Assembly: GCA_039590195.1 (NCBI GenBank)
Contig: JBDHFY010000003.1
Location: 4,241 to 68,240 of the forward strand
Direction of reading: 5' to 3'
Length of the DNA stretch: 64,000 nt
Source of the DNA: Gemmatimonadota bacterium
GTDB lineage: Bacteria; Gemmatimonadota; Gemmatimonadetes; Gemmatimonadales; GWC2-71-9
Shown: piece after piece, positions 6,431 to 53,479 of the stretch
How positions within the stretch are numbered: the first letter of the stretch is position 1
Layout of the letters: each line of letters starts with the position of its first letter
The notes under the pieces: model-generated
The model's database searches: none
What the model was told of the DNA's origin: nothing
The model's input: only the letters and a program-made list of their open reading frames with translations
Program-made: the position numbers and the translations under genes

Positions 6431-8854
6431 GTGGAACTGTTTGAGCAACTACAGCGCACCCTCGGTGCCGCCTACACCGTGAAAGAGGAACTCGGCGGCG
6501 GCGGCATGTCCCGGGTGTTCCTGGCCCACGACAACGAACTCGACCGGAAGGTCGCCGTTAAGGTACTCCACTCAGACCTCGTCGCCGGGGTTTCTGCCGA
6601 GCGGTTCAAGAGAGAGATCATGCTCTCGGCGAACCTCCAGCACCCTCACATCGTCGGTGTCATCAGCGCTGGCGAGACAGAGGGCTTGCCCTTCTTCGTC
6701 ATGCCGTTTGTGGAAGGCGAGTCACTCAGCTTGCGCCTGTCAGGAAAGCGCAAGCTCCCGGTGCGGGAGAGTGTCAGCATTCTCAAGGATGTTGCCCGCG
6801 CCCTCGCCTATGCCCACGAGCGGGGGATTGTCCATCGGGATGTGAAGCCGGGGAATGTTCTCCTGGCGGGGGGGTCAGCGGCGCTCGCCGATTTCGGAGT
6901 GGCCAAGGCCATCCATCAGGCCCAGCATTCGGACGAGGCGGGCTCTACCGACCAGCTCACGAGCGTCGGTATGTCCCTCGGCACACCAACCTACATGGCC
7001 CCCGAGCAGATCGCGGGTGACGCTGATACCGATCACCGCGCTGACATCTATGCTTTCGGCATCATGGCGTACCAGATGTTGGCGGGCGCGCCGCCTTTTG
7101 CCGAGCGAACGGGACGGGCAATCCTCGCCGCCCATGTTACGGAAGCCCCCGTGCCCGTCACCGCCGTGCGACCGGATATTTCCGAGGGTCTCGCCGATCT
7201 CGTCATGCGCTGCATCGAGAAGGACCCCGCACGCCGGCCCCAATCGGCCAGGGAGATCGTTGCTGTGCTGGACGATCCCGCGTTCGTGACGGGGTCGTCG
7301 CACGCACTCTCTTCACACGGTCTCGGCGTGGGTTTCGGACAGTTCGCCAAGCAGCGCCTCGTGGCCGGCCTGGCCGCCCTCGGCATCGTGGTAGCCGGAC
7401 TCGCTTACCTGCTTGGGTCAGGTTCGAACGGCGCCGGAGCGAGCGCGCCTCCACCCGGGGCCATTGCGGTGCTGCCGTTCGTCAACGTCGGCGGCGATGA
7501 GGATAACGACTATTTCGTGGACGGCATGACCGACGAGCTGATCAGTGCGCTCAACAAGGTACCGGGCCTGCGCCTGGCTTCCCGCACTGCAGCGTTTGCG
7601 TTCAAGGATACGCGTGCGACGCCTCGAGAGATTGGAGAAACGCTCAACGTGGCGACGCTACTCGAGGGCACCGTTCGCAAGGCCGGAACTCGGCTCCGCG
7701 TGACGGCGCAACTCGTTTCCAGCGAGGACGGACTCTCCGTGTGGTCCGACACCTACGATCGGGAGATGAGTGACGTCTTCACCGTACAGGACAATCTCGC
7801 CCGAGCGATTGTCGGAGCCCTGCGGGAGCGCCTCGGGGGAGATGTTGCAGGTGATGTTCACCTGCAGAGGGGGACTCGAGATCTCGCGGCTTACGATCTT
7901 TACCTGCGGGGCCGGTTCTTCTTCCAGAAGCGCGGCGACGAAGCACTGCACCGCGCTCTCGCGTACTTCGAGCAAGCCGTAGCGCAAGATTCCGTCTATG
8001 CGGCTGCGTTTGCGGGGATGGCTGACGTGTACGCGGTGTTGCCCCTCTACAGCAGCGCAGCCGGAGACTCGCTGCTGCCGCTCGCCCTGAGGGCGGTAGA
8101 CCGAGCCATTGCGCTGGACAGTATGTTGCCGGCAGCCTACACGTCGCGCGGCGGCATTCTCAACAGCAGCTGGCGTTGGGAAGCGGCGGCGCGGGACCTT
8201 CAACGGGCAATCGAACTCGATCCCAAGTACGTGACGGCCTATCAGTGGTACGGGGAGAATCTCCTCTTGAATGGGCGAGTCGAGGAGGCCATTGCCAATT
8301 TCCAGAGGGCGGCGGAGCTCGACCCTTTTTCCCCCATCGCAACGGCACTGCACGGTGTGGCCTTGGGTATCATCGGATCGTCAGACGAGGCGGTGCAGAC
8401 GCTGCATAGGGCTGTGGAAGTCGATTCTTCCCTCGCAGCGACCCGACTCATGCTCGGGACCGTGTATCTGTACGGGGGAAGAGGGACGGATGCCGTCCGT
8501 GAACTCGAGGCGGCCCGAGTGATCGGAGATGTCCCGGCGGTGCAGGGCATGTTGGGCTACGCCTACGCGGTGACGGGGCGGACCGAGGAGGCCCGCGCCC
8601 TGCTCGCGTCGCTCACGGCTGCAGGGCCCGGTTCCGGGCGTGCAGCCGCCGTCGCGCGGATCCATCTGGGACTCGGCGATCCTTCGGCGGCCCTCTCGTG
8701 GCTCGATCGGGCGGCGGACCTCAGAGATCCATTCTTCGGCTCGGAGCCGATCGCCTCGCCGATCTTCGATTCGCTGCGCGACGATCCCAGATTCACTGAG
8801 ATATTAAGGAAGGTGAACCTGGATGTCGGGCGTTTGACTAGGCCGAGATCCTAG
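6431..8854 (+). CDS. Ser/Thr protein kinase with periplasmic module and C-terminal TPR repeats
   Basis: 807-aa ORF with a GTG start. Hanks motifs GGGGMSRVF, VAVKVL, HRDVKPGNVLL, DFGVAK, YMAPE. One TM, then IAVLPFVNVGGDEDNDYFVDGMTDELI, then TPR-like repeats to the C-terminus. Confidence 0.9.
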   Translation: MELFEQLQRTLGAAYTVKEELGGGGMSRVFLAHDNELDRKVAVKVLHSDLVAGVSAERFKREIMLSANLQHPHIVGVISAGETEGLPFFVMPFVEGESLSLRLSGKRKLPVRESVSILKDVARALAYAHERGIVHRDVKPGNVLLAGGSAALADFGVAKAIHQAQHSDEAGSTDQLTSVGMSLGTPTYMAPEQIAGDADTDHRADIYAFGIMAYQMLAGAPPFAERTGRAILAAHVTEAPVPVTAVRPDISEGLADLVMRCIEKDPARRPQSAREIVAVLDDPAFVTGSSHALSSHGLGVGFGQFAKQRLVAGLAALGIVVAGLAYLLGSGSNGAGASAPPPGAIAVLPFVNVGGDEDNDYFVDGMTDELISALNKVPGLRLASRTAAFAFKDTRATPREIGETLNVATLLEGTVRKAGTRLRVTAQLVSSEDGLSVWSDTYDREMSDVFTVQDNLARAIVGALRERLGGDVAGDVHLQRGTRDLAAYDLYLRGRFFFQKRGDEALHRALAYFEQAVAQDSVYAAAFAGMADVYAVLPLYSSAAGDSLLPLALRAVDRAIALDSMLPAAYTSRGGILNSSWRWEAAARDLQRAIELDPKYVTAYQWYGENLLLNGRVEEAIANFQRAAELDPFSPIATALHGVALGIIGSSDEAVQTLHRAVEVDSSLAATRLMLGTVYLYGGRGTDAVRELEAARVIGDVPAVQGMLGYAYAVTGRTEEARALLASLTAAGPGSGRAAAVARIHLGLGDPSAALSWLDRAADLRDPFFGSEPIASPIFDSLRDDPRFTEILRKVNLDVGRLTRPRS

Positions 8855-8870
8855 GTAGGCTCAGGAGCGA

Positions 8871-8898
8871 CCAGCTCCCAGCTCCCCGCTCCCCGCTC
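8871..8898. repeat. Heptamer tandem repeat (CCAGCTC x2, CCCGCTC x2)
   Basis: Four phase-consistent 7-mers between the convergent kinase (stop 8854) and the CPBP gene (stop 8908). Confidence 0.7.
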
Positions 8899-33651: not shown

Positions 33652-34770
33652 TCAATAAAGGTGCATCCAGCTTCGCTCGCCCAAGGGGATGGCGAAAGCG
33701 GTTCCCTGGAGCGACTGCTGCACGGCACAGCTCGAGTAGTGAAACTGCGCGTTCCCGCCGATGTCATTTTCGTCATCGAATCCGTTCGCGGCGATCACGG
33801 CACCGTTGAATTTTTGTCCGGTGCCCGTCGTCTTGAACCGTCCGCGTACAATTACGACCCCAAAGAATTCGAAGTTTCCCGCAACGCTGAGGTCGCCATC
33901 GACGAGAAGCAGACCCTGACCCTGCCGGCCATTGATCCTCGCATCTCCCGAGATGTAGATGGTGGGGAAGTACTTGCCGCATGCAGAAGAGGGGTCTTTT
34001 CCGTCACCCCAGTTCTGGGGATCAGCGAGGTTGCATTGGGTGCCGACGAAGCTGGGCTGGATCTGAGTGTAGGTGCCCGGACCCAGTGCCGTCGTGGCAA
34101 TCGCTGCCAATGCGTCGAAGTTGTCGTCGCCGAAGGTTGTCAGGGCGGCCTCGTCGATCGTCGCATCGCCGAGAACTGGGGGAACACCATCTAGCTCGTA
34201 AGAGTTGCCCGAGGTGCTGATGTTGGTAGCATCGTCGACCAGGATCCCTGGGAGCGAGGTCCCAAGCGGAGGACAGTCGGACCACCCGGGCGGCAGGTGG
34301 TCGTGGCCGTCGATGTCGGAGTTTCCGCGGACCCTCACATCTCCCTTTGTCTTGAACGCCGCATCGATGTCGATCTCGAAGGGACGGAGGCGAGCCAAGA
34401 GCCCTACATGTTGGTGTGTCGAGGAGTCCGCGCTGAAGCCCTGCGCGTCGACCAGGTACAGCATGGTGTTCATGCGGCGCAGGGTGCGCCGGTACCAGCC
34501 GGTGCCATCGTCCATCCACCCCTCGTCGGTGAGCGTCGAGCCGGCGGCGATGCTGTTGTACCGGAAGGCATCCCAGTCCGCCAAGAGATATTCAGCGGCT
34601 CCGTCCGCCGTGTTAAAAGCGTGCTGTGCCTTGACGGTGCTGCGTCCCAACCGCTGCTCCTGCATCCCGACGAAGAAAGCGCCGGAAATCAACCCGCCGA
34701 TCAGCAGAAGGGCGAACACGGCGGTCACCAGCGCTACACCGCGTTCATCCGTTCGGTTTGCCATCATCAT
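33652..34770 (-). CDS. PilX_N-type pilus assembly protein, paralog 2
   Basis: ORF 33652-34812 trimmed to MMMANRTDERGVALVTAVFALLLIGGLISGAFFVGMQEQRLG, the PilX N-terminal domain pattern (ERG.AL + hydrophobic helix, no G/F cleavage site). Clearly paralogous along its whole length to 35691-36833. Confidence 0.7.
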   Translation of the reverse strand: MMMANRTDERGVALVTAVFALLLIGGLISGAFFVGMQEQRLGRSTVKAQHAFNTADGAAEYLLADWDAFRYNSIAAGSTLTDEGWMDDGTGWYRRTLRRMNTMLYLVDAQGFSADSSTHQHVGLLARLRPFEIDIDAAFKTKGDVRVRGNSDIDGHDHLPPGWSDCPPLGTSLPGILVDDATNISTSGNSYELDGVPPVLGDATIDEAALTTFGDDNFDALAAIATTALGPGTYTQIQPSFVGTQCNLADPQNWGDGKDPSSACGKYFPTIYISGDARINGRQGQGLLLVDGDLSVAGNFEFFGVVIVRGRFKTTGTGQKFNGAVIAANGFDDENDIGGNAQFHYSSCAVQQSLQGTAFAIPLGERSWMHLY

Positions 34771-34852
34771 GGACTCAGCTCGCTCGAGGGCTCTAGCTCG
34801 CCCGCGCCCCAAGTCCGTGATCGAGCAACCACTTGGGGCAGTGAAGCTCCGA

Positions 34853-34887
34853 GCTGGCAGCTAACAGCTAATAGCTGTTAGCTCCTC
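34853..34887. repeat. Heptamer repeat GCTGGCA GCTAACA GCTAATA GCTGTTA GCTCCTC forming a palindrome (possible terminator/attenuator)
   Basis: The centre TAACAGCTA-T-TAGCTGTTA is a perfect 9-bp inverted repeat. It is located between the REC-HTH regulator stop (34890) and the PilX-like paralog 2 start. Confidence 0.65.
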
Positions 34888-34889
34888 CC

Positions 34890-35489
34890 TCATGCGTTGA
34901 GATGATAACTCTTGATCTTCTTGATTAACGTCGTCCGCGCAATCCCGAGTTCGCGCGACGCGTGCGTGCGATTGCCCCGGTGATGTCGCAGGACCTCTTC
35001 GATGTGCTCGCGCTCGAAGTCATCGAGCGTACGGGGAAGGTGATCGGCCTCTGCTGCGACACCGGCGAGATACTCACCGCTTCTCCGCTGCTCGAGCTCG
35101 GCCTCCAGCGTTGCCAACTGATTCTTCAGTAGCTCTCGTTCCTCGGCTTGACGAATGGTGAGCGCCAGCTGGTCCGGGCGGAATGGTTTGGCGAGGTAAT
35201 CGTACGCACCCCACTCCATCGCCTGAATCGCGGCGTCCTCATCCGAGTATGCGCTCATCATGATCACCAGCGCTGCGCCGCCCGCTGACTTGTAGCGACG
35301 CAGGAAGTCAGGACCCGTCAGGTCCGGCATCTGGACGTCGCAGAGGATGAGGTCGAAAGGCTCGTGTGTCGCCAGGTTGAGCGCCTGGACGGGGGAGCCT
35401 TCTGCCTGCACGTCGTGTCCATCGAACTTGAGCAGACGGACGAGAGAATCTCTGAGACCAGGGTCGTCGTCAATGATGAGGAGTTTCAT
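34890..35489 (-). CDS. Response regulator, REC + Fis-type HTH, lacking the sigma-54 AAA+ module
   Basis: 199-aa ORF. By eye, its REC domain is about two-thirds identical to the REC of the NtrC-type regulator at 38627-39982 (MKLLIIDDDPGLRD...PFDLILCDVQMP...GGAALVIMMSAY...GAYDYLAKPFRPD). The coiled linker (LATLEAELEQ) joins directly to the HTH (NRTHASRELGIARTTLIKKIK). It has no Walker A and no GAFTGA. Confidence 0.85.
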   Translation of the reverse strand: MKLLIIDDDPGLRDSLVRLLKFDGHDVQAEGSPVQALNLATHEPFDLILCDVQMPDLTGPDFLRRYKSAGGAALVIMMSAYSDEDAAIQAMEWGAYDYLAKPFRPDQLALTIRQAEERELLKNQLATLEAELEQRRSGEYLAGVAAEADHLPRTLDDFEREHIEEVLRHHRGNRTHASRELGIARTTLIKKIKSYHLNA

Positions 35490-35690
35490 GATCCCTTCCG
35501 AACCAGATCCGATTGTGTGGATGCGGACCAGTTACCGGTCCGGTGCCAGCGTTGCTCCAAACCTTTCCGGTGAGGAAGCCGGCGTTCACGTGGGGAATTC
35601 AGCAGGGCATCTCTCTATCAACTGAGATGCAACCGCGGCCTTAGCGTTTCTTCCTATCCTCAACGGCCCCCGGCGCCGCGAGGAGGTTGC

Positions 35691-36833
35691 TCAGTATAGG
35701 TTCACCCAACTTCGCTCGCCGAAGGGAATCGCAAGTGCGGTTCCCTGGAGCGAACGCTGAATGGCGCAGCTCGAGTAGTAGAGTTTCGCGTTTCCAGCGA
35801 CGTCGTTGAGTCCGTTGCCGTTATTGGCGGCGATCACCGCGCCGTGGAACTTCTGGCCGGTCCCCTCCGTCGAGAACCGTCCGCGCACGATGATCACGCC
35901 GAAGTACTCGAAATTGCCCTTTACCAAGAGGTCGCCGTCCACGAGGAGGAGGCCCTGGCCCTGCCAGTTGCGGACCTCTGCGTCCCCCTTGATATGCGTG
36001 ATAGGGTAGTACGTCCCGCAAGGCGATAACGGGTTCTGCCCGTCGCCCCAGTTCTTGGGATCCGCGAGATTGCATTCGCCGCCGACCAGGCTTGGCTGAA
36101 GCTGAGCGTACAATCCAGGAGCCAGCACCTTCGTCGCCTCGGCGGCCAGGGCATCAAAGTCGGTGTCCCCAAACGTGGTGAGCTCGGCTAGGTCGATCTC
36201 CGAATCTTCGTCGATGCGCGGGTTGCCGTCGATGATGTGTGCCCCACCTTCTTCTGTGACGTTCGCCATATCGTCCACCAGCAGTCCGGGAGCCCCAGCA
36301 TCGAGCGAGGGGCAATCGAGCCACCCGGGCGGCGTGCGATCGTGGCCATTTATTTCGGACTGTCCACGAGCCTTCACGTTGCCGCGCGTCTTGAAGGCGG
36401 CGTTGGCGTTGACTTCCACCAGATTGAGCCGGGCCAGGAGGCCGACGTGTTGCTGTGTCGAGCTGTCCGCACTGAAGCCCTCCACCTCGACCAAGAACTG
36501 CATCGTGTTCAGCCTGCGTAGCGTGCTGCGGTACCAGCCCGTGCCGTCGTCCATCCACCCATTCTGGGTGAGTGTCGAGCCGATCTGGAGGTTGTTGTAC
36601 CGAAACGCATCCCAGTCCGCCACGAGATATTCAGCGGCTCCGTCGGCTGTGTTAAAGGCCTGCTGCGCCTTGAGCGTGGTGCGGCCCACCCGCTGCTCCT
36701 GCATTCCGACGAAGAAAGCGCCGGAAATCAACCCGCCGATCAGCAGAAGGGCGAACACGGCACCAGCTAGGGCCATACCGCGTTCGTTTCTTCGGTTCGC
36801 CATCATCGGACTCCTTCGCGGGCTGTTCGTCAC
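35691..36833 (-). CDS. PilX_N-type pilus assembly protein, paralog 1
   Basis: 380-aa ORF whose ATG overlaps the PilW-like stop (ATGA). An internal MMANRRNERGMALAGAVFALLLIGGLISGAFFVGMQEQRVG is an alternative start (36806). The C-terminal region is conserved with paralog 2 (GQGLLLVDGDL.V.GNFE.FGV.IVRGRF.T.GTGQKF.GAVIAAN). Confidence 0.7.
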   Translation of the reverse strand: MTNSPRRSPMMANRRNERGMALAGAVFALLLIGGLISGAFFVGMQEQRVGRTTLKAQQAFNTADGAAEYLVADWDAFRYNNLQIGSTLTQNGWMDDGTGWYRSTLRRLNTMQFLVEVEGFSADSSTQQHVGLLARLNLVEVNANAAFKTRGNVKARGQSEINGHDRTPPGWLDCPSLDAGAPGLLVDDMANVTEEGGAHIIDGNPRIDEDSEIDLAELTTFGDTDFDALAAEATKVLAPGLYAQLQPSLVGGECNLADPKNWGDGQNPLSPCGTYYPITHIKGDAEVRNWQGQGLLLVDGDLLVKGNFEYFGVIIVRGRFSTEGTGQKFHGAVIAANNGNGLNDVAGNAKLYYSSCAIQRSLQGTALAIPFGERSWVNLY

Positions 36834-37681
36834 GGGTTGTTCCTGAGAGCAACTTGAGTCGTCAGGGAGTCCATCAGATATCCCGTCGTCCCCAACGACG
36901 TTCGCACACGCTGAGCGCTCCGGCTGGTGAGCGCGATGCCGATCCGAGTCACTTCAGCCGGTGTGGCCGTCGCTCCCCCTGCTGCGTCGAAGTAGCTCAA
37001 GGTGAGTCCGGATGCGGTGAGTGGACCGGCGATCTGCTGGAGGTCGTCCCACGCGCCGGCGCCCTTGTCGAAGGCGTGGCCTCCCAGCCACCAGTCGTCC
37101 GCCGCGTCCTTGTAGAGCTGGACCTCGACGACCTCAAAGCTCCGCACGGGAGACCAGGCGGTGACCCCGCCCAGGTCTGGCCCGTTGTTGATCGTCACAT
37201 CCAGGCTCGCCGCCCCGCCGGGGCAGTTGTTGCCTGGTGATGCACTTTCCAAATCCACGTGCAGCCATTGGTCGTCGTCATCGGTCGTGCTGTCGGCGTC
37301 CACGAAGATCAAGGCCGAGTCCCGGCCCGGGTCCAGCGGTCGGAGACCGAGCCCATTGGTGGACGCGAGAAAGAGCTGCTGGCTCCCGGTGACGCCCGCA
37401 ACGCAAGTCGTGTAGAGGTTGCGCATCGCTTTGTACATCAGCGACGTGCTCGTCATGGCAATGATGTCACTGCCGGTGACGTCGCCGGCGTTGAGCTCGC
37501 GAAGCTCGGTCGGCAACACCGACATCCCCGACCGCACGTTGTCCGTCACCTTGACGCGCTGTGTTTGGCTCATGTATAACCGCTGGCCGTTGACCAGGAC
37601 CGTGAAGATGGCCGCGGTGACAATGGCCGTGAGAACCATTCCCACGATCAGCTCGATCAGCGTGAATCCACGGGAATTCAT
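36830..37681 (-). CDS. PilW-like type IV minor pilin (prepilin-type N-terminal methylation domain)
   Basis: ORF 36830-37795 trimmed to MNSRGFTLIELIVGMVLTAIVTAAIF (class III signal G|FTLIE). Size and position match pilW. 4-bp overlaps on both sides. Confidence 0.75.
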   Translation of the reverse strand: MNSRGFTLIELIVGMVLTAIVTAAIFTVLVNGQRLYMSQTQRVKVTDNVRSGMSVLPTELRELNAGDVTGSDIIAMTSTSLMYKAMRNLYTTCVAGVTGSQQLFLASTNGLGLRPLDPGRDSALIFVDADSTTDDDDQWLHVDLESASPGNNCPGGAASLDVTINNGPDLGGVTAWSPVRSFEVVEVQLYKDAADDWWLGGHAFDKGAGAWDDLQQIAGPLTASGLTLSYFDAAGGATATPAEVTRIGIALTSRSAQRVRTSLGTTGYLMDSLTTQVALRNNP

Positions 37682-38028
37682 GTACACCTCACAACCGTGG
37701 AAAACGTATCGGTGCGCGAGCCCTTGGGCGTCGGCGAAATGACGTTCACGCTGATCTTGGTAGCCTTCCCCGTCGGCAGCAGCTCGTCCGACCAACTGAC
37801 TGTGTACCGCCCGACCGGTTCCGACCCAGGCGATAGAGTCGCGCAGTCCTGACTTCGAAGAAGTTCGAAGCGGTCAGCGGCGAGCGTACTCGCGTAGGTG
37901 TGCTGCCTGCCCTCGGCGACCAGCTGGGTCGTCGCGGCGGCGGTGGCCAAGAGTCCCATCATACCCAGCGAGAGCATGAGGATGGCCACAATGGCTTCAA
38001 CGGTAGCAAACCCGTTCTGGTTCTTCAT
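37678..38028 (-). CDS. PilV-like type IV minor pilin
   Basis: 116-aa ORF, MKNQNGFATVEAIVAILMLSLGMMGLL (G|FxxxE prepilin motif). Small size and position are as for pilV. Confidence 0.7.
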   Translation of the reverse strand: MKNQNGFATVEAIVAILMLSLGMMGLLATAAATTQLVAEGRQHTYASTLAADRFELLRSQDCATLSPGSEPVGRYTVSWSDELLPTGKATKISVNVISPTPKGSRTDTFSTVVRCT

Positions 38029-38474
38029 CGCATGACCCTCCCCATCGGCGAGATCCTCAGCGAGTCGCTGTATGCACCCGTGCTGAGGTAGATGGCAGCG
38101 ATACCGGCGTTCATCGGGCCTAGGCCCCGGCCGTCGAACATCAGGGAATCGTGTGTGGACATGACCGCCACGCCAAAGCGCCGGTGCATGCTCTCGATGA
38201 CGCCCACGGTTTCCGTCGCACCCGAAACCGGGTTCGTGGAGCGGATCTCCAGCGTATCGCCACGGAAATGCAGGAACGTGGTCTTTCCCCGCTGCATGGC
38301 TGTCGCTCGAGCCTTGGCGTGGATGGTGACGATGGCATCCTTTGCTGCCCGCACCTGGTATCCAGCGTACGCTCTGGAGAATTTCGGAAAGGCAACGCCC
38401 GCCAGAATACCCATCAGGGCAAGGGCGTTTGCGATCTCGATGAGGGTGAAGCCTCGGTTCTTCATTGTCGTCAT
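38025..38474 (-). CDS. FimT/GspH-like minor pilin (pseudopilin)
   Basis: ORF 38025-38537 trimmed to MTTMKNRGFTLIEIANALALMGILAGVAFP. The second ATG at 38465 is equally possible. First gene behind the sigma-54 promoter. Confidence 0.7.
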   Translation of the reverse strand: MTTMKNRGFTLIEIANALALMGILAGVAFPKFSRAYAGYQVRAAKDAIVTIHAKARATAMQRGKTTFLHFRGDTLEIRSTNPVSGATETVGVIESMHRRFGVAVMSTHDSLMFDGRGLGPMNAGIAAIYLSTGAYSDSLRISPMGRVMR

Positions 38475-38500
38475 CTCTCTGCGGTCGGCACCGATAGTGG

Positions 38501-38516
38501 CAATTGACGTGCCAAC
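38501..38516 (-). promoter_or_regulatory. Sigma-54 (-24/-12) promoter of the minor-pilin operon
   Basis: The minus strand reads gatgtTGGCACGtcaaTTGCcact. This matches the TGGCACG-N4-TTGC consensus exactly, ~27 nt upstream of the ATG at 38474 and directly downstream of a sigma-54 enhancer-binding protein gene. Confidence 0.75.
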
Positions 38517-38626
38517 ATCTAACTGTAATGGCGACAATGGGTTAACGTGTTTGCGACGAGTCTCTGAGGATGCAAGATCTTACAGAGGTGCAAATTGGTG
38601 CAGGCGGGGCCCGCGAGCTTACAGGA

Positions 38627-39982
38627 CTAGATGGCGTGTTGCTTGAGCTTGTAGAACAGGCTGCGGATGCTCACGCCCAGGATCTTGGCGGCTTCGGCAC
38701 GGTTGCGGCCTGCCGCGCTGAGCGCCGCCTGAATGGCTTCGCGCTCGGCGCGACTGACGGCCACCTTGAGGGGGAGGGGGCCCCGATCCTGGCCGTTCTG
38801 CCCGTTGCCCGATGCAGCGGAGGGAGCCTCGGCAGACGCCGCGAACGCCTCAGCAGGCACCTTACCGTTGGGGGAGAGCACGACAGCCCGCTCGATGGCG
38901 TTTTCCAGCTCGCGCACGTTTCCGGGCCAGGGTCGCTGGCAGATCGCCGCCAGGACTTCCGGCGTGACGGTGACTCGTTGTCCGGTGCGTTCCATGCTCC
39001 GCTGGAAGAGGGCGAAGACGAGGGGCTCCAGGTCTTCCTGTCGCTCCCTGAGCGGCGGTACATGAATGCGGATCACATTCAGGCGGTAGTACAAATCCTC
39101 GCGAAACAGCCCCGCCTCGACGTCTTGCTCGAGGTCGCGGGCGGTGGCCGCCACGACCCTGACATCAACTTTGCGGACACCGGGGTGGCCCACGGGACGG
39201 ATCTCGCCCTCTTGCAGAACGCGAAGGAGCTTGACCTGGAGGGGCAACGGGAGGTCACCGATCTCGTCGAGTAGGAGCGTGCCGCCGTCGGCTTCCTCGT
39301 ACAGCCCGCGCCGCTTGGAGGTGGCCCCGGTGAAGGCGCCCTTGGCGTGTCCGAACAACTCGGATTCGAGCAGGGACTCCGGGATGGCTCCGCAATTGAG
39401 CGCCACGAACGGGCCCTCGCAGCGGGGGCTCATCGCGTGGATCTTGCGTGCTAATACTTCCTTGCCAGTCCCACTTTCGCCGGTCACGAGGACGGTGGTC
39501 GTGTGGGGCGCGACCCGGGCGGCCAGCTCCATCACGCGGCGCATGGCAGGAGACTGGGCGACCAGGTCGTGGTCCCGCCACTTAGCGAGCTCGGCCTCGA
39601 GCGAGGCCACCTGATCCCGCAACTGCTCCCGTTCCTGTGCCTTGCGGAGCGTAAGCGTAACCTCATCCGGGCGGAACGGCTTCGACAAGTAGTCATACGC
39701 GCCCCGCTTCATGGCCTCGATCGCCGCGTCCTCGGTGCCGTACGCACTCATCATGATGACGAGTGCCGCACCGCCTGCCTCCTTGTAGCGACGCAGGAAT
39801 TCCGGGCCGTCCATCTCGGGCATTCGTACGTCGCACAGGATGAGGTCGAACGGAGCTTGTCGGGTAAGGTCGAGGGCATCAACCGGTGAATTCTGAGCGA
39901 CCACGTTGTAGCCCTCGAGCTTCAGAAACCTGGATAGCCCGTCACGCAATCCGGGATCGTCGTCGACGATCAGAACCTTCAT
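38627..39982 (-). CDS. Sigma-54-dependent response regulator (NtrC/PilR-type enhancer-binding protein)
   Basis: ORF 38627-40231 trimmed to MKVLIVDDDPGLRD, whose ATG overlaps the kinase stop by 4 bp. Domains are REC, AAA+ (GESGTGKEV, GHAKGAFTGA, LLLDEIGDL, RVVAAT, RELEN) and a Fis-type HTH (NRAEAAKILGVSIRSLFYKLK). Confidence 0.9.
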   Translation of the reverse strand: MKVLIVDDDPGLRDGLSRFLKLEGYNVVAQNSPVDALDLTRQAPFDLILCDVRMPEMDGPEFLRRYKEAGGAALVIMMSAYGTEDAAIEAMKRGAYDYLSKPFRPDEVTLTLRKAQEREQLRDQVASLEAELAKWRDHDLVAQSPAMRRVMELAARVAPHTTTVLVTGESGTGKEVLARKIHAMSPRCEGPFVALNCGAIPESLLESELFGHAKGAFTGATSKRRGLYEEADGGTLLLDEIGDLPLPLQVKLLRVLQEGEIRPVGHPGVRKVDVRVVAATARDLEQDVEAGLFREDLYYRLNVIRIHVPPLRERQEDLEPLVFALFQRSMERTGQRVTVTPEVLAAICQRPWPGNVRELENAIERAVVLSPNGKVPAEAFAASAEAPSAASGNGQNGQDRGPLPLKVAVSRAEREAIQAALSAAGRNRAEAAKILGVSIRSLFYKLKQHAI

Positions 39983-40932
39983 TGGCCGCACGGTAGGAAC
40001 ACTTTGAACGCCGCTCCCCCCTCGCGCGCCCGGTCTACCCAGGCGATTCCGCCCAGTTCGTGCGCGGTTCGCTGCACCAAGGCGAGGCCGAGTCCTGTTC
40101 CTTTGCCCGGTTCCTTGGTCGTGAAGAAGGGGTCGAACACGTTCTCGGAGTCGTTGTTGCGAATGCCGGGGCCCGAGTCGGCGACGTACAGGAGGACACC
40201 GCGGCTGCCCGGCGGGAGTTCCGGCCGCCATGGACGCCGCGTGGCCGGTCTGGTCGAAACTGGACGCCGACGGTTGTCACCGCGCCGCCGCAGCGCATCA
40301 CCGTGAGGTTGGTACCCGGCTGCAAGTGCGCCCACGGCAATCGAGATGTTGGGTGCCGCGTCCACCGCATTGAGGAGCAGGTTCACCATCAGCTGTTCGA
40401 GGGCGTGGGCATTTCCACGCACCTTCGGCAATTTAGGGTCGCACTCGAACACCAGATTGGCGCGTTTGAGCACACCCTGTTGCTTCAACAGCTCGATGGC
40501 GGACCGCACCATCGCAGCCATGTCGATCTCGCTGACTGACTCCCTGTGAGTGTGAGCGTAATCCAGCAGGCTCCGCACGATGCGATCGATGCGCTCCGTT
40601 TCGCGTGAAAGCGCCTCGACGATCTCGCCGTCCGCGTCGGTGCGCTCGAGGAGACCGATGTAGGTCTTGATGGCCGAAAGGGGATTGCCGACCTCATGGG
40701 CAATCCCTGCGGCCATCCTCCCGATGCTCGCGAGCTTCTCCGCTCGCGCGAGTTGGCGCTGGACGTCCTCGCTCTGGGCGATCATACCGCAAACACTCTC
40801 CACATAACGTCTCGGCCCGGTGGATGTCCAGGACCAAGCCGAGCGACGTACACCGTTCGCCTCGAGCCCTCGACTATCCGTGCCGGTAGCTGCCGGATCA
40901 CCACTTCCCTCAACGACAGACACTCCGGCCAT
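39979..40932 (-). CDS. Cytoplasmic sensor histidine kinase (DHp + CA only; no TM or HAMP)
   Basis: 317-aa ORF. H-box RMAAGIAHEVGNPL, N-box LMVNLLLNAVDA, G1 DSGPGI, G2 GKGTGLGLA. There are only ~55 aa before the DHp helix. It is paralogous to the TM/HAMP kinase at 48492-49607. Confidence 0.85.
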   Translation of the reverse strand: MAGVSVVEGSGDPAATGTDSRGLEANGVRRSAWSWTSTGPRRYVESVCGMIAQSEDVQRQLARAEKLASIGRMAAGIAHEVGNPLSAIKTYIGLLERTDADGEIVEALSRETERIDRIVRSLLDYAHTHRESVSEIDMAAMVRSAIELLKQQGVLKRANLVFECDPKLPKVRGNAHALEQLMVNLLLNAVDAAPNISIAVGALAAGYQPHGDALRRRGDNRRRPVSTRPATRRPWRPELPPGSRGVLLYVADSGPGIRNNDSENVFDPFFTTKEPGKGTGLGLALVQRTAHELGGIAWVDRAREGGAAFKVFLPCGQ

Positions 40933-41500
40933 GGCAACCGGGACGGAAACACGGGATCACCGTGTGCCGAAGTTGTCGGTTAGCCGCATCGTGAGCGGCC
41001 TTGTTCCGGATGACCAACGCGGTATCCAACGCCGGCGAATACAGGCGTGCACCATGGAGTGTTGACGAGCGCACGGTCCTCCGGATTCAATGTCAGCATC
41101 ACACCACCCACCACACCGTCCATGGGGCATTAAGTTGGGACGATTGGTGGCATGATTTCTGTGAGCCACGTCATTTTCACCCAAACACTGAGGATCAGCT
41201 CGGCACAATCACCGATTCTATGGGCTTTGCGCCGTTGCGAGCGGGCGCTGGGATGACGCAAATCACACAAAAGTAGATCGGCTTCTGGTGGAACCGAGGC
41301 CGCTCGGCGGGTGCGGTGGCGTGCTATTTGGGAGTGCAATGTGCTGCAGGCACCGCTCGCGTTGCGTAATGGAAAGACGGTGTTTGTGGCGCGCTGCGGT
41401 GTTGCCGAACAACGGGAGAGCGAAACGGCCGGTCATATGTGAGGCAGCTCACCAAACCCCCTTTCTCCTCGCCGGTTCCGCGATGCGATGACTCCGGAGA

Positions 41501-45931: not shown

Positions 45932-45973
45932 TGGTGCAGCTAACAGCTAATGGCTAACAGCTAGCAGCTGCAT
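45932..45973 (+). repeat. Heptamer repeat TGGTGCA GCTAACA GCTAATG GCTAACA GCTAGCA GCTGCAT
   Basis: Six phased 7-mers filling the gap between the class-A-like gene stop (45973) and the upstream gene start (45897). Confidence 0.7.
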
Positions 45974-48491: not shown

Positions 48492-49607
48492 CTATTCCGG
48501 GGGGATGTCTTGCGCGCTCGGTAGGAAGACTTTGAACGCTGCACCGCCTTCCCGGGCCCGATCGACCCACGCAATGCCACCCAAGTCGAACGCCGTACGC
48601 TGGACGATGGCAAGACCTAACCCCGTTCCTTTCCCGGCGTCCTTCGTGGTATAGAAGGGCTCAAAGATGTGCTCCACGTATTCCTCGGGGACACCGACAC
48701 CAGAGTCAGCCACGCAGATCAACACCCCTGGGCTCCCCGGGAGCAACTCGGGGCGCCAGGGCCTCCGTACGCGCGGGCGCGTGTGGACGGGGCGATCACG
48801 GGCATCTCCCCTCCGGCGCAACGCGTAGCCCAACGGTCGATAGTGCGCCGAGAGCGTTGCCACAGTGATCGACCCCGCTGGGGCGGCGTCCACCGCGTTC
48901 AAGATCAGATTGACCATCAACTGCTCGAGAGTGTGGACCTGCGCGACAATGTGTGGTAGCTCAGGGTCGCGCTCCACAACGATGGTGATATTCTTCAACA
49001 CACCCTGCTGAGTCAGGAGTTCGATCGCGGCTTGCGCGACTGCCCCCAAATCAACCTCGGTCAGGGAGTCCCGCCTAGTGCGGCCGGAGTCCAGCAAGCC
49101 TCGGACAATGCGATCGATCCGGTCCATCTCGCGCGTAATCGCCTGGACGATTTCTGGATCGGGCTCGCCCTGTTCCAGCAGTGCTAAGTATGTCTTCATG
49201 GCCGCCAAGGGATTCCCAATTTCGTGAGCGATGCCAGCGGCCATTCTCCCGATGGCGGCCAACTGCTCGGCGCGTCCGAACTGTCTCTGGACGTCCGCCA
49301 CGTGCTCGGTCATGCTGTTGAATCGGTTAGCCAAGACGGCAAATTCGCGACTCGCGGCTTGTGGAGCACGGTGAGTAGGATCGCCCGCGGCGAGGGCGTT
49401 CGCGGTCGCTGCCAGTGATTCGAGCGGACCGATGACCAGCTTGCGAACCAGATGTTTTCCGTATGCGAGTGTTGCCGTGGCACAAGCGACGAGCGCGAGT
49501 GCGACGGCTAGCACGCCGAAGAGGGGTAGCGCAGGTGCCAGCCACACTGAGATCGCCAAGGCGATGCTGAGAGCTACGACAGGTGCTGCCAGGCGGGAGA
49601 GGAGCAC
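48492..49607 (-). CDS. Membrane sensor histidine kinase (2 TM + HAMP + DHp + CA)
   Basis: ORF 48492-49805 overlaps the upstream GNAT gene, so the start is provisionally the GTG at 49607. TM helices (AAPVVALSIALAISVWLA / LFGVLAVALALVACATATLAY), a HAMP-like linker, H-box AAGIAHEIGNPL, N-box LMVNLILNAVDA, DSGVGV, GKGTGLGLA. No response regulator is adjacent. Confidence 0.8.
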   Translation of the reverse strand: MLLSRLAAPVVALSIALAISVWLAPALPLFGVLAVALALVACATATLAYGKHLVRKLVIGPLESLAATANALAAGDPTHRAPQAASREFAVLANRFNSMTEHVADVQRQFGRAEQLAAIGRMAAGIAHEIGNPLAAMKTYLALLEQGEPDPEIVQAITREMDRIDRIVRGLLDSGRTRRDSLTEVDLGAVAQAAIELLTQQGVLKNITIVVERDPELPHIVAQVHTLEQLMVNLILNAVDAAPAGSITVATLSAHYRPLGYALRRRGDARDRPVHTRPRVRRPWRPELLPGSPGVLICVADSGVGVPEEYVEHIFEPFYTTKDAGKGTGLGLAIVQRTAFDLGGIAWVDRAREGGAAFKVFLPSAQDIPPE

Positions 49608-49686
49608 TCTCTCGAGGCGCGGCTGGGTTCCAGTGGCTTCAGTCGCACTGGCACCCCAGGCATCGGCCTCACCGATCCGCGTTTGT

Positions 49687-50538
49687 TTACTGGCGCTCGA
49701 GGAGATAGAAGCCACGATTGCCCTTATCCAAGTGGAAACCCTGAACTTGGTACCCCTTTTCCAGGTACCAGAGAAACGCTGTCCTGGTCGTCCTGCGCCA
49801 GGCATTGGCGGATTCCAAGGAGACGGACTTCACACGCTGGATGTCTCCCGGAATCTCGATCCTGACCGACGCGTGAGTGGGTAATGTCGTTCCCGCCGGC
49901 AGGGGCTCCCCTTCGCTGTTGGTGTTCACGACCGCCACCTTGCTGAATTCGGGTCGCGGCGAAGCCCGGGAGCCGGCCAGTGATTGCTCGACCCGAGGAT
50001 GGTTAAAATCCCATCGAACGACGAACCGATCGGTGCCCAGCCCGCTGTGGAGATCGCTTCCCGTGTCGTCACCGTACATTTCGGGGACGTACTCGACGGG
50101 GAGCGCTCCGAGGCGGTTGACATTGAGATTGGCGTTGCGGGCTTCGAGGGGGTCGTACGTCCAATAGGCAACCTCGACACCGCGGCTGAGCAGAAGCTGG
50201 CGTTGGTACTCCTTGAGGCGTCGTCCCAAACCTGAGCCCTGAGCTTCTGCTCGGACCGCCAGCATGTGAGACCAGTGTGCAGGTTGGCCGTCTCGGATTC
50301 CCGTCAAGCCGAACACGAATCCGATGAGCTGACCGCTACCGTCGAACGCCCCGGCCGCGATCCCCCCCGCCTTTTGGCTAATCATGAGGATGCTGGAGGG
50401 AACACACTCGGTGAATTCCTGGCCCCAGGTATCGCGTTGGAGCGCCTTGCATTGTTCGTAATCATCAAACGAATGGAATTCGCGGAGCGTCATGCCGTGG
50501 AATGAGGTGGACGAAGAGGTTGATGAAGGCGGTACCAT
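49687..50538 (-). CDS. GNAT-family acyltransferase (two-lobed, COG3375-like)
   Basis: 283-aa ORF whose ATG overlaps the upstream transporter TGA (ATGA). Acyl-CoA pocket-like segment HMLAVRAEAQGSGLGRRLKEYQ (Q/RxxGxG/A). Confidence 0.65.
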   Translation of the reverse strand: MVPPSSTSSSTSFHGMTLREFHSFDDYEQCKALQRDTWGQEFTECVPSSILMISQKAGGIAAGAFDGSGQLIGFVFGLTGIRDGQPAHWSHMLAVRAEAQGSGLGRRLKEYQRQLLLSRGVEVAYWTYDPLEARNANLNVNRLGALPVEYVPEMYGDDTGSDLHSGLGTDRFVVRWDFNHPRVEQSLAGSRASPRPEFSKVAVVNTNSEGEPLPAGTTLPTHASVRIEIPGDIQRVKSVSLESANAWRRTTRTAFLWYLEKGYQVQGFHLDKGNRGFYLLERQ

Positions 50539-53423: not shown

Positions 53424-53479
53424 GCCGGCCGCCGGCAGCCGGTACCTAACAGCTGACGGCTAACAGCTAACAGCTACAG
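53424..53479 (+). repeat. Heptamer repeat, 8 phased units: GCCGGCC GCCGGCA GCCGGTA CCTAACA GCTGACG GCTAACA GCTAACA GCTACAG
   Basis: It occupies the gap between the convergent dipeptidase (stop 53373) and asparaginase. The asparaginase TAG stop lies inside the last unit. Confidence 0.8.

Follow-up and report, generated by a model that had tools for sequence, protein, structure and literature searches.

A probable AAA+-less PilR paralogue in a satellite type IV pilus tip-complex locus of Gemmatimonadales

The described arrangement closest to the locus analysed here is the control of type IV pili (T4P) by PilS and PilR. The locus lies in a 64-kb stretch of contig JBDHFY010000003.1 from a Gemmatimonadales lineage (the window, taken at its full length) and contains a 199-aa response regulator at 34890-35489 that we call sRR. 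As in PilS-PilR control, the window encodes an activator with a receiver (REC) domain, an AAA+ domain and an HTH_8 helix-turn-helix (HTH) domain, which groups with canonical regulators, has a PilS-like kinase gene beside it and a sigma-54 promoter with tandem boxes downstream. In contrast to PilS-PilR loci, that of the window is without major pilin and pilMNOPQ genes, its kinase has no input domain, and sRR has no AAA+ domain and so cannot be a sigma-54 activator. The sequence comparisons presented below indicate that sRR very probably arose within this lineage as a PilR paralogue and lost its AAA+ module, and that it most likely acts as a phosphorylation-controlled, sigma-54-independent DNA-binding regulator.

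Several other described systems resemble parts of this arrangement. Regulators of the REC-HTH_8 type are already known as a family (PMC5847659), and sRR has the two-domain architecture and the size (~180-200 aa) of its ActR/PrrA/RegA members, in which control is presumably sigma-54-independent as well; sRR is nevertheless unrelated to them by descent, as it falls short of the corresponding NCBIfam model, its REC lies in the PilR clade and it has kept a linker of the NtrC1/DctD type. The receiver-linker modules of NtrC1 and DctD (1NY5, 4L4U, 1ZY2, 1QKK, 1L5Y) are the best solved-structure sequence matches to sRR, with the difference that their linker controls an AAA+ ring whereas that of sRR leads into the HTH. 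In Myxococcus, the multi-component system NmpRSTU modulates T4P via an NtrC-like regulator and a phospho-sink (PMC6211767), and resembles the window in being a PilR-type circuit extended by extra kinases and receivers with a common phosphoryl flow; it appears to differ in that the sink would be without a DNA-binding domain like that of sRR, and its components are presumably not homologous by descent to those of the window. Finally, ComZ of Thermus thermophilus is a pilin with a grafted beta-solenoid for which a tip location and DNA binding have been argued (PMC6561018). The PilX proteins of the window are likewise predicted to combine a pilin N-terminal helix and sheet with a beta-solenoid, and their genes occupy the same slot behind FimT/PilV/PilW-like genes, but they are 371 aa long as opposed to ~500 aa in ComZ (6QVI), and both sequence identity and global template modelling (TM) score are low. 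A literature search of incomplete coverage returned no description of an AAA+-less PilR derivative, and none of such a regulator accompanied by both a kinase copy devoid of input and a duplicated tip pilin of the ComZ type. The locus presents a clean, naturally occurring example of how a regulator is remodelled; it does not amount to a system of a new kind.

Origin of the short regulator

The two regulators compared in this section are as follows.
34890-35489, minus strand: sRR, a 199-aa response regulator made up of REC, coiled-coil linker and HTH_8, characterized by Pfam, alignments, trees and the ratio of nonsynonymous to synonymous divergence (dN/dS).
38627-39982, minus strand: PilR-type sigma-54 activator of 451 aa, with REC, coiled-coil linker, AAA+ (Sigma54_activat), AAA_lid_14 and HTH_8, assigned by Pfam.

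Pfam placed Response_reg (PF00072) at residues 4-112 of sRR (2.6e-26) and HTH_8 (PF02954) at residues 154-195 (3e-15). The protein thus has the N-terminal receiver and C-terminal Fis-type HTH of the NtrC family; it is without the AAA+ domain that defines the enhancer-binding proteins of that family, as Pfam gave no match to PF00158, PF14532 or AAA_lid. The initial annotation of this DNA had described the sRR receiver as about two-thirds identical to that of the neighbouring activator, and the measured value agrees: residues 1-142, comprising the REC plus the linker, share 93 of 142 positions with the 451-aa activator (65%). The resemblance of the two linkers that had been pointed out (QLATLEAELEQ in sRR, QVASLEAELAK in the activator) falls within this span. 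Beyond it the alignment skips to the HTH (159-197 of sRR, 413-451 of the activator), leaving out ~255 residues that make up the AAA+ core plus the lid, so that the loss of this module as originally proposed is borne out; in sRR the linker enters the HTH after a spacer of ~16 residues. BLAST E-values of 0.0 for the two PilX proteins and 2e-66 for sRR and the activator place both similarities well above chance. With respect to the receiver itself, the acidic pocket (DDD7-9), D51 (LCDVQMP), S79 (MMSAY) and K101 (KPF) are kept in all four sRR sequences, and on these residues the receiver is intact and predicted to be competent for phosphorylation.

Relatives of sRR are few. A search of 5.8 billion proteins returned only two at full length, P0001 (94%) and P0002 (89%), together with a close fragment, P0285, while the remaining matches were the REC parts of sigma-54 activators at ~60% identity or less. 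Exhaustive phmmer against 1.84 billion representatives likewise gave one sRR cluster at 407 bits, the next match scoring 171 bits. We surveyed 78 Gemmatimonadota loci fetched via the PilX-family alignment, plus four encoding-contig look-ups, and among the 78 loci a gene for sRR between two pilX genes occurred only in the lineage of the window: L002 and L003 (identical), L001 (~93%) and L011 (~80-90%). The PilX pair flanking an AAA+-less regulator, which the initial annotation had singled out, recurs in the independent assemblies L001, L003 and L011.

A neighbour-joining tree of REC plus linker (Kimura correction, 55 sequences, 141 columns) placed the sRR clade as sister to the clade of local activators with a bootstrap of 0.92, the pair being nested in the PilR clade and the sRR branch being ~3x longer. 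Quartet-informative sites were distributed 3:0:0 in favour of sRR with the local activator, and unique changes in REC and linker numbered 17 in sRR vs 5 in the activator. Together with the 65% identity, these results uphold the proposal that sRR derives from the neighbouring PilR/NtrC-type activator minus the AAA+ module. Two observations could have spoken against that proposal: a receiver no closer to its neighbour than to unrelated ones, or membership in an old, independent REC-HTH_8 family. The neighbour's REC was in fact the closest of all those found, and the ActR/PrrA model NF033791 scored 55.2 bits against a cut-off of 250, its match being confined to REC residues 2-117 and exceeded by the AtoC and NtrC models. 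Other AAA+-less NtrC-like proteins were P0163 (224 aa, 43% identical to sRR) and P0248 (225 aa, 37%). In the PDB, the best sequence matches of sRR were 4L4U, 1ZY2, 1QKK and 1L5Y, of the NtrC1/DctD type, aligned through the linker helix.

The HTH presents a different picture. It is 33% identical to that of the local activator and 33-46% identical to the remaining HTH_8 domains of the retrieved loci. HTHs of the PilR clade, by comparison, reach 56-70% identity to the activator's and have the helix LGVSxRxLFYKLK in common. The recognition helix of sRR, LGIARTTLIKKIK, reads ARTTLIKKIK where the PilR clade has the invariant SxRxLFYKLK; the HTH core EVLRHHRGNRTHASRELGIARTTLIKKIK is identical in every sRR orthologue. 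A database search with the HTH by itself for a possible donor turned up no closer HTH, just a fragment from this lineage with 86% identity. Between the window and L011, the sRR gene as a whole had a dN/dS of 0.08 and its HTH part one of ~0.05; across three strains the ratio ranged from 0.07 to 0.27 for all eight genes of the locus, with 0.08-0.13 for sRR, 0.15-0.20 for pilX2 and 0.08-0.20 for the kinase gene adjoining the activator. Receiver, linker and HTH of sRR are thus all under purifying selection, and because the recognition helix is divergent yet strongly constrained, the HTH is predicted to be functional with an altered specificity.

Kinases, promoters and candidate operators

Two related kinases are encoded in the window.
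39979-40785, minus strand: HK, a 268-aa histidine kinase core composed of the dimerization and histidine phosphotransfer (DHp) domain and the catalytic and ATP-binding (CA) domain, without transmembrane segments or HAMP (Pfam HisKA and HATPase_c only).
48492-49805, minus strand: HK2, a full-length kinase of 437 aa with two transmembrane segments, HAMP, HisKA and HATPase_c (Pfam; true start codon uncertain).

Over its 268 aa HK aligns without gaps with residues 165-432 of HK2, whose gene lies 8.6 kb away; identity is 66%, and the start Met of HK coincides with the HAMP/DHp junction of HK2. The latter has two hydrophobic segments (~residues 67-115) and no adjacent regulator gene. No remnant of a transmembrane segment or HAMP was found upstream of HK, and in a tree the two kinases formed a clade with a bootstrap of 1.0 against canonical PilS-like kinases. 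Judged by this alignment, HK is a stripped paralogue of HK2 that lost the input module; the initial annotation had listed neither HK2 nor the fact that the local kinase is a truncated copy. In both kinases an Arg-rich insertion of ~40 aa (for example RRRGDNRRRPVSTRPATRRPWRPELPPG) separates the N-box of the ATP-binding domain from its G1 box. The 224 nt 5' of HK (40786-41009) are 86-89% identical across strains, conserved like coding DNA, and an 88-aa open reading frame (ORF; 41010-41276, plus strand) without a Pfam match is oriented divergently to HK.

In two-component systems, partner choice is set by alpha-1 of the receiver and helix 1 of the DHp domain. At alpha-1, D14, R18 and K21 are common to sRR and the local activator, where canonical PilRs have R/K/Q, L/I and D/E/Q/A; at DHp helix 1, counted from the His, HK and HK2 carry K at position +10 and E at position +17, where canonical kinases have G and R/K. 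From these derived alpha-1 residues and the matching DHp changes we infer that sRR probably receives its phosphoryl group from the kinase or kinases that serve the full activator.

The control elements considered were the following.
38571-38602, minus strand: two PilR-type enhancer boxes, TGCA-N6-TGCA, N4, TGTA-N6-TGCA, in a layout that recurs in ~45 Gemmatimonadales loci.
38500-38514, minus strand: sigma-54 promoter TGGCACGTCAATTGC upstream of fimT, with one mismatch to TGGCAC-N5-TTGCW.
35490-35690, minus strand: intergenic region between pilX1 and sRR, a candidate sRR promoter/operator on account of inverted repeats and conservation.
34771-34889, minus strand: spacer between sRR and pilX2, with AGCTNNN heptads and a hairpin, no PilR box and no sigma-54 promoter.

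The local activator shares 62-66% identity with its counterparts in canonical Gemmatimonadales T4P loci and has the traits of the PilR orthogroup, namely REC-AAA+-HTH_8, LGVSxRxLFYKLK, two TGCA-N6-TGCA boxes and a sigma-54 promoter before fimT, although its locus is not embedded in a pilin-pilSR-minor pilin-pilMNOPQ cluster. The fimT promoter is kept in L001 and L011 and has its equivalent at the same position in relatives. In ~45 loci among L004-L087, TGCA-N6/7-TGCA occurs twice right after the PilR-type stop codon, with a GGCAC-N5-YTG promoter 60-70 nt further on, a layout that supplies a ready-made PilR box for Gemmatimonadales. Within the 64-kb window, no second instance of the double TGCA box was found. 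PilR boxes are absent from the spacers before sRR and pilX2, and a scan of both for sigma-54 sites gave no convincing promoter, a TGGCAC before sRR having no -12 element. It had been suggested that sRR still recognises the upstream sites of the activator. This suggestion found no support: the HTH is 33% identical, the recognition helix differs, and the boxes stand only before fimT. Since the HTH appears to have been retooled and both the TGCA boxes and the sigma-54 promoter are found only upstream of fimT, competition between sRR and the activator at a common enhancer is unlikely.

As for sites that sRR might bind, the pilX1-sRR spacer is 84% identical to that of L011, like coding DNA, as compared with 53% for the activator-fimT spacer. 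It contains two inverted repeats, GCATCTC-N10-GAGATGC (35607-35630) and CGGACC-N7-GGTCCG (35524-35542), both conserved in three strains and unique in the window. In the sRR-pilX2 spacer, two hairpins are kept in three strains with G-U-compatible changes only, the second being GCCCCAAGT-N17-ACTTGGGGC (RNA fold z = -2.4); they could represent a terminator, an attenuator or an mRNA stability element. The same spacer holds an array of AGCTNNN heptads with a perfect palindrome (34845-34883; 6 heptads in the window, 8 in L011). We considered this palindrome as a specific operator for sRR and rejected it, as similar arrays occur at other gene ends and the copy number differs in L011. Such arrays (mostly AGCTAAC, at least 4 consecutive AGCT cores, zero expected in shuffles) also lie at 45938-45969, 53444-53475 and 8866-8897, in intergenic positions at gene ends, and may be a dispersed repeat or terminator-like element.

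The PilX pair and the history of the locus

Three features concern the tip pilins.
35691-36806 (36833 with an upstream GTG start), minus strand: PilX1, a putative PilX/ComZ-like tip pilin, from an AlphaFold2 (AF2) model, Foldseek and family relatives.
33652-34770, minus strand: PilX2, a second putative PilX/ComZ-like tip pilin, from 68% identity to PilX1, the tree and dN/dS.
34667-34722, minus strand: a gene-conversion tract of 56 nt in pilX2, identical to pilX1 36706-36761.

PilX1 and PilX2 align over their full length, as had been seen by eye, with 253 of 371 identities (68%), 81% positives and zero gaps; divergence is greatest around residues 170-200, and the DNA repeats are spaced 2039 nt apart. 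The two are sisters in the tree with a bootstrap of 1.0, in agreement with the idea that PilX2 is a lineage-specific duplicate of PilX1. Their nearest outgroup (bootstrap 0.73) is a solo PilX-family gene in L010 (8980-10092) with no pilus or regulator genes nearby. At the N-terminus (...NERG|MALAGAVFALLLIGG) Glu at +5 is absent, and a prepilin-like hydrophobic helix follows, the gene standing after those for FimT, PilV and PilW. In a Pfam scan (E <= 0.01) the window PilX proteins had no match, PilX_N (PF14341) included; family relatives at 38-44% identity in some cases carry PF14341 or are named PilX N-terminal domain proteins. The AF2 model (pLDDT 91, pTM 0.82) consists of a long N-terminal helix (residues 9-63), a pilin sheet and a beta-rich domain. 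Foldseek ranked Thermus ComZ 6QVI first in the PDB (E 1.7e-7, probability 1.0), yet at a TM score of 0.21-0.25 and 12-13% identity, and beta-helical ice-binding proteins followed. On this model, the window "PilX" is predicted to be a ComZ-like pilin bearing a beta-solenoid domain.

A stretch of ~50 nt of identical DNA had been cited as part of the alignment that pointed to a tandem duplication. The identity is real and extends over 56 nt (36706-36761 and 34667-34722), encoding AVFALLLIGGLISGAFFV, but it is not a relic of the duplication. In L001 pilX2 differs at this place, whereas pilX1 reads alike in L001 and the window; the first 330 nt have a dS of 0.43 and the remainder one of 1.46. The tract is a recent pilX1-to-pilX2 gene conversion in the window strain, and being strain-specific it was dropped as a gauge of duplication age. 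Two relatives carry altered pilX genes. In L003 (2279-3381), pilX2 has a 13-nt frameshifting deletion (CTGGTCGACGATG; window equivalent ~34230-34242) and one single-nucleotide polymorphism in a contig that is otherwise identical and comes from another sample, the deletion being either a population variant or an assembly error. In L011 (metagenome-assembled genome M8-44_Bin_129; 7089-8161), pilX1 is broken up into two ORFs that overlap but differ in frame, with sRR and the start of pilX2 intact.

Taken together, the window contains three paralogue pairs at 65-68% identity (HK2/HK, activator/sRR, PilX1/PilX2), dN being 0.24-0.25 for both the PilX and the REC pair, and this similar divergence points to one lineage-specific duplication burst. 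In two of the three pairs one copy lost exactly one module, the transmembrane segments and HAMP in HK and the AAA+ and lid in sRR. Since dS is saturated at 1.0-2.3, we gave up using it to date the pairs and thereby test for a single event. A single unit may, as originally proposed, have been duplicated and then have lost its copies of fimT, pilV and pilW, but pilX by itself is often duplicated in tandem in this order.

All genes of the locus lie on the minus strand and are transcribed in the order HK, PilR-type activator, fimT, pilV, pilW, pilX1, sRR, pilX2. The minor-pilin genes between the activator and pilX1 are as follows.
38025-38474, minus strand: FimT/GspH-like minor pilin, from an N_methyl motif, weak GspH matches and synteny with canonical loci.
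37678-38028, minus strand: PilV-like minor pilin, from a TIGR02523 PilV match (E 5e-9, under the curated cut-off) and synteny.
36830-37681, minus strand: PilW-like minor pilin, from an N_methyl motif and synteny.

In the surveyed relatives, the canonical order is two pilins, a HAMP kinase, the PilR-type activator, fimT, pilV, pilW, one pilX, pilMNOPQ and topA. Because neither a major pilin gene nor pilMNOPQ was found in the 64-kb window, the region is a satellite T4P tip-complex locus of a Gemmatimonadales lineage. An Rfam scan across the entire window gave zero matches. Tandem pilX genes were present in L025, L051, L052, L056, L062 and L087, and an extra pilW-pilX in L024, L026, L054, L075 and L081. 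In canonical clusters, second pilX, pilW-pilX or pilV-pilW(-pilX) sets were observed in L013, L019, L024-L026, L050-L052, L054, L056, L062, L075, L081 and L087. Repeated, independent expansion of minor pilins suggests recurrent diversification of the tip complex.

A proposed second branch and its alternatives

The best overall explanation, which we favour with modest confidence, is a satellite locus in which duplicated and stripped paralogues have come to include an sRR with its own operator. In this scheme HK and/or HK2 would phosphorylate both the activator and sRR, and sRR would bind an operator other than the PilR boxes, because its recognition helix differs and sRR and pilX2 have no PilR box in their vicinity; foremost among the candidates are the inverted repeats of the pilX1-sRR spacer. 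From there, sRR would act as a sigma-54-independent activator or repressor of sRR and/or pilX2. One signal would then have two outputs, the sigma-54/PilR-dependent expression of fimT-pilVW-pilX1 and an sRR-dependent branch that sets the level of PilX2, which may serve as an alternative ComZ-like tip subunit. Such a branched pathway with a separate operator is a real possibility that we would stop short of calling probable.

Among the alternatives, the one closest to the original proposal is that sRR damps sigma-54-dependent minor-pilin expression, either as a dominant-negative competitor at the activator's enhancer or as a pure phosphate sink. The derived alpha-1 specificity residues common to sRR and the activator and the intact phospho-acceptor residues would suit this role, a phospho-sink protein is known from the T4P-regulating multi-component system of Myxococcus (PMC6211767), and co-transcription of sRR from the fimT promoter, if it occurs, would provide negative feedback. 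A competitor would however be expected to read the PilR boxes, which are present only at fimT, whereas the sRR HTH stands at 33% identity as against 56-70% within the PilR clade and differs in its recognition-helix residues. A pure sink, for its part, has no need for an HTH, and that of sRR evolves at a dN/dS of ~0.05; the sink idea is possible but cannot explain a selectively maintained HTH, and we regard this alternative as a whole as unlikely. Alternatively, sRR could pair with the activator through REC and linker and hold or release an inactive dimer, its HTH merely tethering it. The linker of NtrC1 and DctD mediates an inhibitory off-state dimer, the REC-linker constructs of these two proteins are the closest structural relatives of sRR by sequence, and sRR has kept REC and linker up to residue 142 at 65% with a heptad-like LEAEL motif. 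The 17 substitutions specific to sRR in this region, compared with 5 in the activator, fit insulation equally well, and a heterodimer would leave the conserved, distinct recognition helix unexplained, which makes this role decidedly improbable.

Two further readings would deprive sRR of either its local origin or its function. The recognition of REC-HTH_8 without AAA+ as a major family (PMC5847659) and the existence of the AAA+-less NtrC-like P0163 and P0248 would allow sRR to be an old ActR/PrrA/RegA-like protein that resembles its neighbour through general REC conservation. We find this scarcely credible in view of the NF033791 score (55 bits vs 250, REC only), the identity of 65% to the neighbour vs 43% and 37% to P0163 and P0248, and the nesting in the PilR clade at 0.92. 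It is also very improbable that sRR and pilX2 are functionless, decaying leftovers of the duplication, as the frameshift of pilX2 in L003 and the coming and going of extra pilX copies across the order might suggest, given that dN/dS is 0.08-0.20 in both genes over three strains with dS up to 0.6, that the window, L001 and L011 have intact reading frames, and that the spacer upstream of sRR is conserved.

Several considerations weigh against the scheme of a separate sRR branch. Expression of sRR and pilX2 may be mere read-through from the fimT promoter, and a sigma-70 consensus scan found no sites, the consensus being uninformative as promoter rules are unknown for this phylum. The proposed operators are conserved inverted repeats only and could be RNA hairpins. 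The frameshift of pilX2 in L003 and the split pilX1 of L011 may mean that either copy is dispensable, or may be assembly errors. With regard to origin, the trees are distance-based (neighbour-joining, Kimura) on 141 columns, not maximum likelihood; the HTH, at 33% identity, could have been acquired from an unsampled donor instead of diverging in place; and whether the duplications took place in one event or in several can no longer be recovered.

Although the uncultured state of these organisms limits immediate experimental reach, the locus offers a datable view, at the level of sequence, of how an enhancer-binding protein becomes a two-domain response regulator: the AAA+ module was cleanly excised while receiver and linker stayed in place, the recognition helix was apparently rewritten under selection, and the kinase partner shed its input module in parallel. 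Such a case is relevant to the possible origin of REC-Fis regulators such as ActR/PrrA, and to the insulation or deliberate cross-wiring of paralogous two-component pathways. A more far-reaching reading, which we consider quite unlikely, is that a single duplication burst and module stripping built onto a PilSR-like circuit a sigma-54-independent branch made up of a kinase devoid of its sensor, a regulator devoid of its engine but with a new DNA specificity, and a second ComZ-like tip pilin, and that this branch could serve as a programmable tip switch, with PilX1 and PilX2 being switched or mixed as receptors at the pilus tip; if true, a tip-subunit switch answering one signal would be a feature not described for T4P. 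Finally, the analysis flags a large, unannotated and repeatedly duplicated family of putative ComZ-like beta-solenoid tip pilins in Gemmatimonadales, which suggests diversification of tip receptors in this order.

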